A model generated the notes under the pieces. The model searched no databases and was not told where the DNA came from. It saw only the letters and a list, made by a program, of their open reading frames with translations. A DNA stretch of 64,000 bases, from positions 430-64,429 of the IMG/VR virus record IMGVR_UViG_3300038316_000118; one strand, given 5' to 3'. Shown one piece after another: positions 1,960 through 22,393 of this stretch (the stretch's first letter is position 1; every line of letters starts with the position of its first letter). Made by a program: the position numbers and the translations under genes. The DNA comes from a virus.

Positions 1960-3018
1960 GTGAGTACAGTTACCGTTGAATATACCCCGCCTGAGCAGAT
2001 ACAGCGGTTCCGTGAAATGCAGGCTCTCCCATATCGGCTTAAGATTCCATATGCGATCGGGAAGGCACAGGAATTCTATGATACCTTGGACGGCAAAGTT
2101 TTCTGCAGCGTCGGGGGACTGGATAGTATCACGCTATTGAGGTTTCTCCGCAAATACGTTGATCCAGACATTCCTGGAATGACAATATCCAGTCTGGAGG
2201 ATAAATCTATTCAAAAAATACACCACCAGCTGGGTAATATGGTTTTTCTCAAGCCTTATAAGAGCAAGGTCCAAGTAATCCGTGAGCATGGATATCCGGT
2301 AATTTCAAAAGAAAAGGCCGGGAAGATTCAGCTGCTCCAGAACCCTACGGAGAAAAATGCAACGGTACGCCATGCCATCATGACTGGGGAGACAGGTGCT
2401 TATGGTGGGTACCGGAAGGGCACACGGATGAAACTGCCTCAAAAATGGTTAAACCTTTTTGGCGGCCCGGAAAATGCAAACTACGGGACCGACTATCAGA
2501 CAGCGCCATTCAAGGTTAGCCCTGACTGTTGCTATTACATGAAAGAAAAGCCGGCAGACGATTGGGCGAAAAAGAACAGGCTGCATCCGTATATGGGGCT
2601 TATGGCCAGCGAAGGAGGGCAGCGGGAAAAAGCGTTAATTAAAAATGGCTGTAATTACTATGGCAAAACGGTCACCCGGAGTTGCCCATTCGCAATCTTC
2701 AAGAGGCAGGATTTACTTCAGCTAGCGCTTGATATGGAGGTACCGGTGCCGGAGATCTACGGAGAGATAGCACGAGGCCCGGACGGTACCCTTCGGACAA
2801 CCATGGCACAAAGGACCGGCTGCACTATGTGCGGCTTCGGAATACACATCGAGAAACGCCCCCATCGTTTCGACCGTCTCAGGATAACCAATTACAAGGA
2901 GTGGAAATTCTGGATGTACGACATGGGCTGGGGCAAGGTTCTGGATTACATCGGGGTCAAATGGGAAGACGAGTATGTTCCCCCGCCCAAACAGGGCGAA
3001 TTACCGTTTGTTATTTAA
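1960..3018 (+). CDS. Phage PAPS-reductase-family (PP-loop) protein
   Basis: SVGGLDS PP-loop, CCYYMKEKP, RTGCTMCGFG. Confidence 0.8.
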   Translation: MSTVTVEYTPPEQIQRFREMQALPYRLKIPYAIGKAQEFYDTLDGKVFCSVGGLDSITLLRFLRKYVDPDIPGMTISSLEDKSIQKIHHQLGNMVFLKPYKSKVQVIREHGYPVISKEKAGKIQLLQNPTEKNATVRHAIMTGETGAYGGYRKGTRMKLPQKWLNLFGGPENANYGTDYQTAPFKVSPDCCYYMKEKPADDWAKKNRLHPYMGLMASEGGQREKALIKNGCNYYGKTVTRSCPFAIFKRQDLLQLALDMEVPVPEIYGEIARGPDGTLRTTMAQRTGCTMCGFGIHIEKRPHRFDRLRITNYKEWKFWMYDMGWGKVLDYIGVKWEDEYVPPPKQGELPFVI

Positions 3019-3032
3019 GGGGAGGCGATATA

Positions 3033-3485
3033 ATGGCAACCATAGCGGAGCTACTACGGGCCCGGAACCATATAGCCGTCTGGGAGCAGGAGCACGGCCG
3101 GGAAGCCACCACGGATGACTTAATGGTCATCCTGTATAACCAGAATGCAGAGGAGGCCCGGGAGAAACGGGAGTCCAAAAAGCGAAAGAGGAATAAGCCC
3201 CTCATTAAGCGCAAGGATTACCTAACCAAGCGGGACCGGGAATTCATCATCGTAATGGCCGCCTGCACCCAGGGGCTTCAAAACATCATAGACGAATGGC
3301 AGGAACATGACCAGAATCCGTTCCTGCTTCGTTGTTTAAGGACTGCAAATACCTGGATATATAAGGCCATGGAGTGGATGACCAAAGACCTGCTGGGGCG
3401 GGAGAAGATGAGCCTGCTCCGGCAGGCTGCTTATAACGAGGTTGGAATTATTGAGTACGAAGTGAGAAGAAGGGGGAAGGCATAG
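3033..3485 (+). CDS. Hypothetical protein
   Basis: GGGGAGG RBS, ATG at 3033, tightly packed in the operon. Confidence 0.65.
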   Translation: MATIAELLRARNHIAVWEQEHGREATTDDLMVILYNQNAEEAREKRESKKRKRNKPLIKRKDYLTKRDREFIIVMAACTQGLQNIIDEWQEHDQNPFLLRCLRTANTWIYKAMEWMTKDLLGREKMSLLRQAAYNEVGIIEYEVRRRGKA

Positions 3486-3486
3486 C

Positions 3487-4236
3487 ATGCTAAAAATGCT
3501 TGACCTCTTCTCCGGTATCGGCGGCTTCTCACTCGCCGCATCCTGGACAGGTGCGATAGAAACGGTGGCCTTTTGTGAGATAGAGCCATACTGCCAAAAG
3601 GTATTACAGAAGAACTTCCCAGGAATACTGATACACTCGGACATTACCAAGCTAAGGGGGGAGGACGTTGGAGCAGTTGACATTGTTTGCGGAGGATTCC
3701 CTTGCCAGCCTTTCAGCAATGCCGGGAAGCGAAGAGGCAAAGAGGATGACCGTTATCTCTGGCCGGAATTACTTAGGGTTATTGCCGAAACACACCCACT
3801 TTGGGTTATTGGTGAAAATGTTACTAGTCTGCTCAATCTGGGAATCGAGGAGATGTTACTTGACTTGGAAGATATCGGGTATCGGGGGGGGGTATTCCAA
3901 ATACCAGCTTCAGCAATCGGTGCCACGTTTGCCGGGGATAGAATTTATATCGTTGCCACGTCCCATAGCAAGCAATGCTATTGCTTGGGTGAGAACATCA
4001 AAATCAAACCCACGGCACAGTATCAAAAAATGCTTAGAGCGTGGAAGTCAGAATCAGGTAGTTTACCTTTGGATTTGGAAGGGTTTTTCGCCGATACAGG
4101 CCAGCGAATTGAACGAAACGATGATGGGCTTTCCGAGGGGTTGGACAGACTTAAGTGCATAGGAAATGCCGTAGTGCCGCAGGTGGTTTACCCGATATTG
4201 CAGGGGATTGTGGAGATAGAACGGAGGGATGCGTGA
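3487..4236 (+). CDS. C5-cytosine DNA methyltransferase, large (alpha) polypeptide
   Basis: Motif I DLFSGIGG, IV GGFPCQPFS, VI ENV, X GNAVVP; no motif IX in this frame. Confidence 0.9.
   Translation: MLKMLDLFSGIGGFSLAASWTGAIETVAFCEIEPYCQKVLQKNFPGILIHSDITKLRGEDVGAVDIVCGGFPCQPFSNAGKRRGKEDDRYLWPELLRVIAETHPLWVIGENVTSLLNLGIEEMLLDLEDIGYRGGVFQIPASAIGATFAGDRIYIVATSHSKQCYCLGENIKIKPTAQYQKMLRAWKSESGSLPLDLEGFFADTGQRIERNDDGLSEGLDRLKCIGNAVVPQVVYPILQGIVEIERRDA
3668..4162 (+). CDS. Nested out-of-frame ORF, probable methyltransferase beta subunit carrying motif IX
   Basis: TTG start behind a GGGGGGAGG SD; ends ETMMGFPRGWTDL, which resembles motif IX. Confidence 0.65.
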   Translation: MEQLTLFAEDSLASLSAMPGSEEAKRMTVISGRNYLGLLPKHTHFGLLVKMLLVCSIWESRRCYLTWKISGIGGGYSKYQLQQSVPRLPGIEFISLPRPIASNAIAWVRTSKSNPRHSIKKCLERGSQNQVVYLWIWKGFSPIQASELNETMMGFPRGWTDLSA

Positions 4237-19232: not shown

Positions 19233-19484
19233 ATGGAGTTTGAGCAAAGACGAGAATTAAGAGACAAATTACTTAAAAAGGCATACGACTATTACTTCGA
19301 GAAGAATGGGAGCGAAATGTATGTTGATGAAGGTAAAGAAGGCCCCGAAACACTTTTAGCATATGAGTATTTAAAGGATAAAAGATTGATTGAATATATC
19401 CATTTTGGCGGCAAGGAAATGAAGGCAAAAATTACATCATTGGGAATAGATTTTATTGAAAGTGGACAGAAATTTAACAAATGA
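19233..19484 (+). CDS. Hypothetical winged-helix-like protein
   Basis: RBS; AKITSLGIDFIE C-terminus. Confidence 0.6.
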   Translation: MEFEQRRELRDKLLKKAYDYYFEKNGSEMYVDEGKEGPETLLAYEYLKDKRLIEYIHFGGKEMKAKITSLGIDFIESGQKFNK

Positions 19485-19537
19485 TTGTTAACCGTTGCAA
19501 GCCCCTACGGGGGCTTTTTTCATGCGGATTCTAGGAG

Positions 19538-20083
19538 GTGGGGAGAGTGGCAGATAAGATAACAATTAAACAAGAGAAATTTGTACAGGGCTTATTTGCT
19601 GGCCTATCTCAGAGGGATGCATACAAAGAAGCTTTTAATACAACGAATATGAAAGAAAAAACCATAGATGAAAAAGCGTGTTTACTGGCGGGACGGGACA
19701 AGATTAGGGCAAGACTTGAAGAGCTCCAAAATGAGGTTAAAGAGCGCAATATGGTTACTATCCAGAGGATCCTCCAAGAGTACGCCAGACTTGGTTTTTA
19801 TGACCCTCGCAAGTTCTTCAATGATGATGGCAGTCCAAAAGGCATCCAAGAGCTGGATGATGATACCGCGGCAGTGTTAGCGGGGCTTGAAGTTATGGAA
19901 ATATGGGAAGGCCGGGGCGATAATCGTCAGTTTGTTGGCTATCTAAAGAAATACAAATTGCCAGACAAGAAGGGCGCTCTAGATTCAATGGCCCGGCACC
20001 TGGGGATGTTCGTGGAGAAAAAAGAAATTACTGGGACCCTGGAAGTAGGTATAAAATTGCCTAGTGATATACCGGATGATTAA
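19538..20083 (+). CDS. terS: Terminase small subunit
   Basis: KQEKFVQGL..G.SQRDAYK, ERVL-like IQRILQEYARLGFYD, KLPDKKGALDSMARHLGMF. Confidence 0.85.
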   Translation: MGRVADKITIKQEKFVQGLFAGLSQRDAYKEAFNTTNMKEKTIDEKACLLAGRDKIRARLEELQNEVKERNMVTIQRILQEYARLGFYDPRKFFNDDGSPKGIQELDDDTAAVLAGLEVMEIWEGRGDNRQFVGYLKKYKLPDKKGALDSMARHLGMFVEKKEITGTLEVGIKLPSDIPDD

Positions 20084-20172
20084 GGCGGTTATTATACTGG
20101 TGGCACTATTGCGGAAAGTCTATTTGTGCGGTACAATTTAAGCAATAAAGCTATGCGGAGGTGTATCGCATA

Positions 20173-20877
20173 ATGAAAAGAACTCATGGAGAATCAGTAA
20201 CCAGGTTATACCGTATATGGAAAGATATGCGTAGGCGTTGCAGAAATATTAATAGATCTGATTATTACTTGTATGGCGGCAGAGGAATAAAGGTATGCGA
20301 GGCATGGCAGAAATATGAAACATTTAGAGATTGGGCGAGGGCAAATGGGTACAAGGATAATTTAACCATTGACCGTATTGATTTTAACGGTAACTATGAA
20401 CCCAATAATTGCCGATGGATCACCATTGAGGAGCAAAACACGAACACTAGGCAGAATGTTTTTGTTGAAATAAAAGGTGAAGTCAAAACGCTAACCGAAT
20501 GGGGCAGGGCTTACGGGTTGCCATCTTCAACGATATTTACCAGATATAGAGACGGATTAAGGGGACAGGATTTAATTGCACCTAAAAAAGTAAGTTTTAC
20601 GGGGCATCGTCATACGGAGGAAACCAAGGCCAGAATAAGAGCAAAAGTAAAAGGTGAAAAAAGCCCATCATATGGGAAACACCCGTCGAAGGAAACCAGG
20701 TTAAAAATGTCAATAGCAAAAAGGGGTTGCATGCCACATAACAAACGTCATTTTACTGAAGAAGAAACACAAAAAATAAAGGAAATGGCATTGAATGGGC
20801 TTAGTATTTATCGTATTCATAAAGAACTGGGGACAGACAGAAGGGCAATAAAACGTGTTTTAAACGACGAGAGGTGA
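20173..20877 (+). CDS. Free-standing HNH-type endonuclease with NUMOD3-like repeats
   Basis: YGGRGIKVC, TIDRIDFNGNYEPNNCRW, HTEETKARI and PSKETRLKMS. Confidence 0.75.
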   Translation: MKRTHGESVTRLYRIWKDMRRRCRNINRSDYYLYGGRGIKVCEAWQKYETFRDWARANGYKDNLTIDRIDFNGNYEPNNCRWITIEEQNTNTRQNVFVEIKGEVKTLTEWGRAYGLPSSTIFTRYRDGLRGQDLIAPKKVSFTGHRHTEETKARIRAKVKGEKSPSYGKHPSKETRLKMSIAKRGCMPHNKRHFTEEETQKIKEMALNGLSIYRIHKELGTDRRAIKRVLNDER

Positions 20878-20882
20878 TGCTT

Positions 20883-22393
20883 GTGCCAAAAATAATAGCT
20901 AATTTAACGAGGCTCCCGGAAATAACTAATGACTCCTTCTACAATTTACATAATGATAAGAGCCGTTATTTAGTATTGATTGGCGGAGGTTAGGCGGCTC
21001 CGGAAAATCGGTGTTTGCAGCGCAAAAGGTAGTACGGCGAGTAGCGGGGAGAAGAAAACATAGAATTTTAGTAGTTCGCAAAGTAGCCAAGACCCTGCGC
21101 GAAAGCTGTTTTGCCCTGGCGCGTGGGGTTATATCGGACTTTGGCCTGACAAATTTATTCCGGGTTAATAAGTCAGACATGACCATCCGGCACGCAAACG
21201 GCAATGAAATTATCTTTGCGGGCCTGGATGATGTCGAAAAACTGAAATCAATATACAATATCACTTCCATATGGATTGAAGAGGCCAGCGAGATAGAAGA
21301 CACCGATTTTAGACAGCTCGACATACGCCTGAGAGGCGAATCCGATAGCTACAAGCAAATAATACTCAGCCTGAATCCGGTTTATCACGGGCATTGGATA
21401 CTGCAGGAATTTGTCGGCCCAAACTGGACGGCCAAAAAGCCGAACACAACCGTTCATCATAGTACTTTTAAAGACAACCGTTTTCTTGACGAGGAACAAA
21501 AGGAAGTTCTGGAGGCGTTCAAGGACGTAGACGAATACTATTACACCGTTTACTGCCTGGGCGAGCCTGGTGTACTTGGCAAAACAATCTTCCCGGCCAA
21601 GATCGTCAGCGAGCGAATAGCATACCTGCGAAACAAAAAGCCCTTAAAACGGGGCTTTTTTGCGTATGAGTATGAAGATGAGAAAATAGTGGACAGCTCC
21701 ATTAAATGGGTAGACGACTGGGAAACCGGATATATCGCAATATACGAAGAACCAAAACGGGGCTATCCCTATGTGATTGGGGGAGATACTGCCGGGGATG
21801 GCAGCGATAATTTTACCGGCCAAGCGCTTAACAACGTCACCGGCAATCAAGCGGCGGTCCTAAAGCATCAATTTGACGAAGATTTATACACCCGGCAAAT
21901 ATACTGCCTGGGCAAGCATTACAACCAGGCGCTAGAGGCCATAGAAACTAACTTTAGCACATTCCCGGTTAAGGAACTGCAAAGATTGGGTTACTGGCAC
22001 CAGTTTAAACGGGAAGCCATAGACGAGATAAGCAAGAAAAAATACCATAAATACGGCTTCCAAACCACCAAGCTGAGCAGGCCGCTTATAATTGCCAGAC
22101 TGGTGCAGGCAGTTAGAGAACACCCGGAACTGTTCAACGATATTGCAACGTTAGAGGAAATGCTTACCTTCGTTCGCAACGAAAAGGGCAAGGCCGAAGC
22201 GCAGGAAGGCAAGCACGATGATTTAATCTTGGGCTTGGCTATAGCACATTACGCGAGGGGACAGGAAATAGACAATCCGCCAGCGGAAAAGATAGCACTG
22301 CCCGAAACATTGCCCCCCGACTTGCGTCGGGATTTAGAGGCCGACCCGGCAGCTTTGGCCCACTGGCTGAGCCAGCATAAGAAATATAACTAG
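20883..22393 (+). CDS. terL: Terminase large subunit, reading frame broken at 20991-20995
   Basis: First frame gives ...YLVLIGGG then TAG; second frame continues GSGKSVFAAQK; Walker B WIEEA; nuclease GGDTA and HDDL. Confidence 0.85.

Follow-up and report, generated by a model that had tools for sequence, protein, structure and literature searches.

How can a large-terminase gene be expressed when a stop codon and a change of reading frame fall within the codons for its ATP-binding motif? The question is raised by terL of a phage represented by an IMG/VR virus record of 64,923 bp (IMGVR_UViG_3300038316_000118; completeness by CheckV 100%), of which a stretch of 64,000 nt, hereafter the window, was analysed. 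In this gene the Walker A motif (P-loop) is interrupted by 5 nt, and a gene for an HNH homing endonuclease lies directly upstream. Our reading, to which we assign a probability of about 0.7, is that the terL mRNA is decoded via a short translational bypass, namely a frame-changing +5 stop-hop, which we infer from the sequences of this and other phages. A preliminary description of the locus had already proposed such a hop, and the proposal is now backed by the recurrent geometry of the gap, the covariation of the codons on its two sides and the purifying selection acting on gapped genes. What goes beyond that description is the recurrence of the gap with covarying take-off and landing codons, the evidence for purifying selection, and the finding that the gap forms one edge of a mobile cassette.

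The gap in the terL coding sequence

The terL coding sequence is divided between two frames of the + strand. The 5′ segment (20877..20990) consists of 38 codons in frame 0, counted from ATG 20877 (GTG 20874 is also possible), and terminates in ...R Y L V L I G G G; its last codon, the putative take-off codon GGT at 20988-20990, is directly followed by TAG at 20991-20993. The 3′ segment (20996..22393, + strand) begins with the putative resume codon GGC 20996, continues with SGKS and contains the remaining ATPase and the nuclease part of the protein. Its frame, which is -1/+2 relative to frame 0, matches Terminase_3 (PF04466, the PBSX-type large terminase; E 3e-50) with 171 bits against a cut-off of 23.2, and its 1398 nt are free of further stops. 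Between the two segments lies the coding gap TAGGC (20991..20995, + strand; equally TTAGG, 20990-20994), which contains the UAG (20991-20993) and, overlapping it, the putative landing codon GGC (20993-20995). The sequence across the gap is ATT GGC GGA GGT TAG GC GGC TCC GGA AAA TCG, and deletion of 5 nt from it yields LIGGGGSGKS. The preliminary description had therefore given both coordinates and codons correctly when it stated that removal of 5 nt restores a canonical P-loop and that a GGU take-off codon precedes a UAG overlapped by a GGC landing codon 5 nt on. It was equally right that the second frame has no usable start ahead of the P-loop. Indeed, the Terminase_3 frame is open only from 20960, after TAA 20957-20959, up to its end at 22393; upstream of the P-loop it contains no ATG, GTG or TTG, and its first listed start is GTG 21011, past GKS.

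Genome searches revealed no second terL or other terminase gene in the window's record, terL being single-copy. A genetic code in which TAG is a sense codon was considered and rejected, as the two frames would stay unjoined and frame 0 meets further stops. A phage-encoded suppressor or extra tRNA was likewise rejected, since no tRNA genes were found in the window.

The size of the insert is defined by three close relatives (L003, L004 and L005), which share 91-94% DNA identity with the window over ~2.1 kb and 97-98% identity at the protein level. Because their P-loop codons are uninterrupted (GTC GGC GGC GGC GGC/GGT TCC, encoding VGGGGSGKS), the net insert is exactly 5 nt, accompanied by one GGC>GGA change. 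The family norm, drawn from a sample of 80 protein-selected relatives, points the same way: the P-loop is uninterrupted in 76 of the 80, and 75 of these 76 loops read GG[GA]GSGKS or GGGSSGKS, the exception (L131) having a shorter in-frame GGSGKS. The length expected of a hop product is thus found in 75 of the 76 uninterrupted loops, while one is shorter and none is longer. No near match to the phage was present in the phage GenBank collection.

The preliminary description had also allowed for an assembly error and had asked whether the 5 nt are found in read data. They are: 31-mers spanning the gap were detected in eight runs, which belong to three studies (2014, 2024, 2025), and independent Logan assemblies show 0 differences in the gap region. 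In run X1, both the endonuclease gene and the gap lie within a single unitig (19989-21982) whose depth of 85.7 matches that on either side, and there was no sign of an alternative path. Two contigs from separate assemblies, L002 (IMG/VR) and L067 (ENA), are identical to the window across the gap. It is true that the record is a metagenome assembly and that indel errors occur in this very loop: in a relative (L242; ENA ERZ21549406 tig00013126, 1395-1425), the P-loop of terL is thrown out of frame by a single surplus G in AAAGGGC, which in a long-read assembly is a typical homopolymer error. The insert in the window is not homopolymeric, and it recurs in unrelated phages. The 31-mers from three studies and the Logan unitigs exclude an assembly error for practical purposes, and the chance that the 5 bases are absent from the actual DNA is negligible.

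Recurrence and conservation of the gap

The preliminary description had suggested looking for the same break in related terL genes. It was found in distant lineages and is not unique to this genome. Pattern scans of the design [GNN]-TAG-[NN] at the P-loop covered IMG/VR, JGI metagenomes and GTDB genomes, and sequence comparison of the matches indicates that at least eight unrelated phage lineages have the 5-nt gap: the other gapped terL genes have no nucleotide similarity to the window, and TerL identity between lineages is 37-47%. Four lineages carry a 5-nt gap of the Gly type, that is GGC GGA GGT TAG GC GGC TCC in the window (lineage A), GGG GGA GGT TAG GC GGA TCC in lineage B (L036/L081, L061), GGC GGC GGT TAG GT GGA TCT in lineage C (L094) and GGC GGT GGT TAG GT GGA AGT in lineage D (L097). 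A 5-nt gap of the Ala type is present in lineage F (L180 = L189, L196, L197; GGT GGG GCT TAG CT GGT TCT), in lineage G (GGT GGA GCC TAG CT GGA TCG; eight contigs, from six samples or more) and in lineage H (L191, and L213 in a Riflebacteria metagenome-assembled genome; GGC GGA GCC TAG followed by CT or CC). Lineage I (L205; GCA TAG TT GGA) has a 5-nt gap with an imperfect landing codon, GTT. Finally, lineage E (L119/L120: IMGVR_UViG_3300004241_000316 and 3300027719_000026; 1180-1215) reads GCC TGA ATGTT GGC, with an 8-nt TGAATGTT gap; a matched landing codon was tried as an explanation of this lineage and fails, as GTT is not an Ala codon.

The scans differed in their yield. All 12 hits of the Ala-type pattern among 2.9 million viral contigs were terL P-loops, and lineage F came to light among the 80 relatives selected by protein, with no pattern involved. 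A scan with both landing bases free added one new lineage (I), the rest being one normal terL out of frame and chance hits. Matches in genome contigs were mostly due to chance as well, L213 being the sole terL among them, and truncated gene calls among 50%-cluster representatives led to an intact gene (L241) and to the above-mentioned error in L242, with no new lineage.

Deletion of 5 nt restores the canonical GG[GA]GSGKS in every 5-nt case, and in lineages A-D and F-I the take-off codon is directly followed by TAG. Moreover, in seven lineages the triplet ahead of the resume codon is cognate to the take-off tRNA, the observed take-off>landing pairs being GGT>GGC, GGT>GGT, GCT>GCT, GCC>GCT and GCC>GCC. 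When the take-off codon changes from Gly to Ala, the landing codon switches from GGY to GCY together with it; the landing codon thus tracks the take-off codon across two amino acids, as re-pairing in the ribosomal P site predicts. The same logic accounts for the stop of the 5-nt class, which is always TAG because TAG alone ends in a base able to start a G-initial landing codon.

Divergence within lineages indicates that the gapped genes are maintained. In lineage B, L036 and L061 are 91.6% identical over 5.1 kb and both keep the gap. Their terL genes differ downstream of the gap by 61 synonymous and 13 conservative non-synonymous codon changes in 381 codons, and in the 32 upstream codons by two and none, respectively; the core CTTGGGGGAGGTTAGGCGG does not vary, whereas the three codons after it differ synonymously. 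Downstream of the gap, which is again kept, 468 codons of terL in lineage G show 23 synonymous changes and 2 non-synonymous ones, and lineage H shows 33 and 0 in 183 codons, its landing codon having changed from GCT to GCC, which is still cognate. Across lineages B, G and H, the gap is therefore retained through 5-9% nucleotide divergence, and no second frameshift or stop was found in gapped terL of any lineage, if one TGA in lineage B is read as Trp. These substitution patterns indicate that the gapped terL genes of lineages B, G and H are under strong purifying selection. The TGA in question lies in frame in the conserved YCLGE-W-G motif of gapped terL (L036:6408-6410, IMGVR_UViG_3300021399_000093; also in L061). 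It suggests that the lineage B phage reads TGA as Trp, in a code 4-like manner, with the stop of the P-loop gap still being TAG.

In a maximum-likelihood tree of 76 ATPase domains the gapped genes lie next to intact ones, and at least six gains or losses of the gap are needed. Lineage A is identical to the intact L003 in this domain, lineage F is sister to L174 and lineage G to L129, and lineage C falls inside an intact clade. That the gapped allele is dead is unlikely.

A putative stop-hop and competing explanations

How would the gap be crossed? Ribosomes would initiate at ATG 20877 and decode 38 codons, after which they would pause, the P site holding peptidyl-tRNA-Gly on GGU 20988-90 and the A site the UAG, whose slow decoding would act as the trigger. 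In a fraction of them the tRNA would unpair and the mRNA slip by 5 nt, whereupon peptidyl-tRNA-Gly(GCC), a reader of both GGU and GGC, would re-pair with GGC 20993-95. Decoding would restart at GGC 20996 and give full-length TerL with a canonical ...YLVLIGGGGSGKS... P-loop and the junction peptide ...YLVLIGGGGSGK, and the remaining ribosomes would terminate, releasing a peptide of 38-39 aa. Even a low hop yield may be enough, because TerL works as a catalyst, with few copies per capsid.

Signals that might assist the hop are few. The preliminary description had drawn attention to a 5-bp stem, CGGAG/CTCCG (20984..21002, + strand), around the site. The stem is indeed predicted in the window, but a role for it as a signal is not supported, as the region folds no better than shuffled sequences (z -0.35) and the stem is not conserved. 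The GGC>GGA change creates a Shine-Dalgarno-like run, GGAGG (20985..20989, + strand), located 3 nt 5′ of the landing codon in lineages A and B; a role for it is speculative. The nascent peptide (a beta-strand followed by GGG or GGA) is uninformative, because it is conserved for structural reasons.

Several observations weigh against the stop-hop. Two of the search patterns fixed the second landing base, which biased the count of matched lineages, and lineages I (GCA TAG TT) and E (8 nt, TGA) land on GTT, which makes only a wobble-type match to tRNA-Ala. The matched codons could also partly reflect the origin of the insert, as TA plus a 3-nt duplication left as a repair or excision footprint, instead of selection for re-pairing. 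None of the 91-nt windows folded in lineages A-D gave an RNA structure better than shuffles, lineages B-D having no counterpart of the stem, and GGAG is not significantly enriched in gapped P-loops (5 of 9, against 15 of 56 intact ones). In the phage studied here selection is not measurable, because all gapped copies of lineage A are at least 99.7% identical. The phage may moreover be temperate, in which case a broken gene could for a while be passed on vertically in prophages. Contigs from an RNA run (X15) cover 20620-20950 and 21056-21278, with the gap outside both. Finally, five gapped lineages have no recognisable nuclease gene beside terL, so that the immunity role considered below is either not general or the nuclease has been lost.

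Some of these points would also fit a disabling lesion, from which no TerL is made and which persists by prophage carriage, by TerL supplied in trans from gap-free co-infecting relatives, or by homing that outpaces purging. The phage has two recombinase genes, both within the record (whose ends show no overlap and no obvious host genes), the copies of lineage A are too similar to reveal selection, and in runs X5 and X7 the gapped cassette, with depths of 12.4 and 8.4, occurs alongside a gap-free path of higher depth. Run X1, by contrast, shows the gapped form alone and at full depth, and the allele is found in several mosaic backgrounds and across 11 years. The downstream frame of the window is free of stops over 1398 nt, and lineages B, G and H have kept the design over 5-9% divergence (61/13, 23/2 and 33/0) with no second lesion. 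Therefore we consider a disabling lesion unlikely.

If the gene is functional, the frames might still be joined in a manner other than by a +5 hop, as they differ by -1/+2. A -1 (or +2) frameshift near GGU UAG would give LIGGGLGGSGKS, or UA alone could be skipped to give five glycines; in either case the P-loop would be one or two residues longer, and GLGGSGKS still fits GxxxxGKS. The junction peptides expected are GGGGSGK for the hop, GGGLGGSGK for -1 and GGGGGSGK for +2. A slippery X XXY YYZ heptamer is present in no lineage, the base before the take-off codon being A, A, C or T (C GGA GGT TAG in the window). The -1 triplets (AGG, CGG, TGG, AGC) and the +2 triplets (UUA, CUA) are unable to pair with the P-site tRNA, whose sole option for re-pairing is the +5 triplet, which pairs in 7 lineages. 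In addition, none of the 76 uninterrupted loops of the family is longer than the hop product. Such recoding is thus slightly less likely still than a dead gene. A split gene, whose 39-aa N-terminal peptide and separately initiated C-terminal protein together form an active terminase, has a precedent in T4 topoisomerase, which functions as split subunits after MobA insertion. In the window the break falls within the P-loop itself, and a protein initiated at the first downstream start, GTG 21011, would lack Walker A, which makes a split terminase very improbable.

The mobile cassette and known bypass systems

The preliminary description had not noticed the gene upstream of the gapped terL, nor that the gap is the edge of a cassette. 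The packaging genes follow each other on the + strand in the order terS, an endonuclease open reading frame (ORF) of 238 aa, and terL. The small-terminase gene terS (19538..20083; Pfam Terminase_2) overlaps with the parental terL start, ATG 20076 (ATGATTAA overlap), as read from the relative L004. It is followed by the HNH homing endonuclease gene with a NUMOD3 motif (20161..20877, + strand; Pfam NUMOD3 E 1e-12; phrog_3377 HNH endonuclease E 1e-52), whose stop overlaps the terL start (GTGATG). As a separate observation, an imperfect hairpin inside terL (AAAAAGCCC TTAAAAC GGGGCTTTTT; window 21635-21659) is inverted in the otherwise identical contig L002, which turns K..LKR into Q..RFK; the cause is a small inversion polymorphism or else an artefact of assembly.

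The endonuclease gene is part of a polymorphic mobile block of 909 bp (20084..20992, + strand), which comprises an intergenic leader, the HNH gene, a replacement terL 5′ segment and the first bases of the gap. Positions 20054-21022 form, in runs X5 and X7, a separate 969-nt unitig of lower depth, a de Bruijn bubble, whose alternative path connects 20083 straight to 20993. The loose ends of this path, ...NLERLPEIT... past terS and ...AAAAGCCGCTATTTGGTTCTTGTCGGCGGC ahead of 20993, are those of the intact allele. The endonuclease-less relative L004, in which terL begins at an ATG overlapping the terS stop, marks the same boundaries: window positions 19400-20083 equal L004 2226-2909 (100% over 684 nt by blastn) up to the terS stop, DNA identity is 47-63% across the terL 5′ segment, and from 20997 it climbs to 98%, 93%, 92% and 98%, then to 100% over 480 nt. 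The N-terminal TerL peptides are alike, MLVPKIIANLTRLPEITNDSFYNLHNDKSRYLVLIGGG in the window and MINQNLERLPEITNDSFYRLHNDKSRYLVLVG... in L004, with many synonymous differences in the DNA. Because the peptides are similar and their DNA only 47-63% identical, the cassette brings a foreign, synonymously diverged copy of the stretch that it replaces. The gap thus arrived as the 3′ edge of a 909-bp mobile cassette and was not formed in place.

The gapped allele occurs in several mosaic backgrounds. In run X1, two terS alleles join one cassette unitig, the second of them being a 685-nt unitig with a depth of 55.8, against 32.4 for that of the window (19530-19989), and L002 and L067 diverge from the window upstream of ~19187. 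In L005, the middle part of terS is similarly replaced. Relatives of the window HNH protein (at most 56% identity) do not adjoin terL, and a conserved pairing of endonuclease and terL was not found at the level of this family.

A nuclease gene lies directly upstream of gapped terL in lineage A (HNH and NUMOD3), in lineage F (NUMOD4, HNH_3 and NUMOD1) and in one variant of lineage G (T5orf172/MUG113, a protein which we take to be GIY-YIG-related). In 43 distinct intact relatives, the ORF upstream of terL is terS in 25 and unrecognised in 16, the others being a resolvase or a TetR-type regulator; nucleases thus stand beside terL in three of the nine gapped lineages and in none of the 43 intact relatives (Fisher p = 0.004). 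Within lineage G, the gapped terL genes of L192 (1058-1789) and L188 (oriented 2406-2936) are 95% identical, while terS and the ORFs between terS and terL differ, one of these ORFs being the T5orf172/MUG113 nuclease-like one and the other having no Pfam match.

By analogy with T4 MobA/gene 60, the gap probably breaks the target of the endonuclease in the conserved Walker-A coding sequence, rendering the carrier immune while the hop would keep the protein unchanged. The most economical reading of the nuclease-free lineages would be that a gap can outlive its nuclease. The gap may equally have a regulatory role, in TerL dosage or in coupling to RF1 activity. More tentatively, and somewhat short of even odds, the gapped lineages may represent a family of minimal "homing endonuclease + 5-nt stop-hop" cassettes that target the Walker A motif of phage terL, with the gap as immunity determinant and the hop occurring between matched G-starting codons; gaps that lack a nuclease would then be armour against nucleases or inteins homing into the P-loop.

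terL is visibly a target of mobile elements. The gapped lineage H terL of L213 (contig JAQVCG010000076.1, reverse strand, ~1692-2522 oriented) carries a further, intron-like insertion of ~830 nt that encodes an HNH-type endonuclease past ...YYRIYA, and after which the coding sequence is 95% identical to that of L191; this terL thus contains two interruptions related to mobile elements. In another relative (L010:2099-3010, IMGVR_UViG_3300028602_000383), ~900 nt separate the ATPase part of terL from the nuclease part (blastn matches at 1737-2099 and 3010-3824); an intron, an intein and an inserted endonuclease gene are all conceivable.

Natural programmed bypassing has so far comprised T4 gene 60 and its relatives, the yeast mitochondrial byps and the candidate of phiHau3, short stop-hops being synthetic only. 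A signal-poor 5-nt gap in the most conserved motif of an essential gene, both recurrent and selected, suggests that short hops are more dependable than assumed, and would offer a minimal and easily mutated system for the study of take-off, sliding and landing. It also fits a view of recoding as something that evolves to shield mobile endonuclease cassettes. On the practical side, gapped terL genes are wrongly annotated as pseudogenes or truncated ORFs, so that viable phages can look defective. Should the proposed cassette family be real, the gene 60 strategy would have originated a second time, independently and in a far simpler form, and the hop would be the first natural stop-hop efficient enough for an essential gene.

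Synthetic stop-hops were reportedly described in E. coli by Weiss, Dunn, Atkins and Gesteland in 1987. Hops of this kind take place between matched codons that flank a stop, at +5/+6, with low efficiency, as summarised in the review PMC5009743, and according to the same review no natural in-frame stop-hop is known. Our searches of the literature turned up no account of a 5-nt UAG hop in terL. The synthetic hops and the one proposed here are alike in that the peptidyl-tRNA moves from a stop-adjacent codon to a matched codon a few nucleotides on, with no elaborate signals; unlike them, the window case is natural, frame-changing, conserved and located in an essential gene.

Another close case is that of Streptomyces phage phiHau3 and two prophages, in whose large terminase genes gaps of 10 and 7 nt led by UUA are candidates for bypass (Smith et al. 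2013; Antonov et al. 2023, PMC10732093). Mass spectrometry in E. coli supports bypass of 10-nt gaps in the phiHau3 terminase, the cases amount to three genes in one host genus, and a regulatory or a tolerated hop has been proposed (PMC10732093). These genes share with the window short frame-breaking terL inserts whose removal restores a conserved junction, and the first phiHau3 gap, after ...KGWG and before KD, looks like it sits in the P-loop of that family. The trigger, however, is there a rare sense codon, UUA, with a limiting tRNA; the system is host-specific, its gaps are 7-10 nt long and no link to a homing endonuclease has been reported. In the window the trigger would be UAG, the gap of 5 nt overlaps the landing codon, and the design is spread over many lineages of Bacillota-type and other phages. 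UUA occurs at the window gap only in the -1 frame, the gap itself beginning with UAG, which sets it apart from the phiHau3 type.

The "byp" elements of Magnusiomyces capitatus mitochondria, 27-55 nt in length, are bypassed between matched codons (work cited in PMC5009743). Like the window gap, these numerous elements are short inserted blocks neutralised at translation via matched codons; they differ from it in being mitochondrial, longer, part of another genetic system and devoid of a homing-endonuclease cassette.

A further parallel is T4 gene 60 with its 50-nt bypass and MobA, an HNH homing endonuclease (Bonocora et al. 2011, as cited in PMC5009743), where the bypass protects the carrier from nicking by MobA (Manning & Atkins, bioRxiv 10.1101/2022.08.31.505936). 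Gene 60 and the window terL both have a Gly take-off codon directly before UAG and a matched Gly landing codon, and in both the frames are rejoined into a conserved protein. Similarly, the MobA element and the window block each consist of an HNH gene with an element-encoded copy of the replaced 5′ stretch and a gap at the 3′ edge; near-identical parental genomes are element-free, and some lineages hold the gap without the nuclease. On the other hand, the window gap is 5 nt and not 50 nt long, contains no internal stem-loops or Shine-Dalgarno sequence and has no sequence homology to the gene 60 cassette; its target is the Walker A motif of terL instead of topoisomerase, no division of the gene into two subunits has taken place, and the putative take-off codon is GGU (GCY in other lineages) in place of the GGA of gene 60. 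MobA-like nicking and protection would apply here by analogy. The gap of the window would work like gene 60 and like a stop-hop, and belongs to a cassette outside the gene 60 family.

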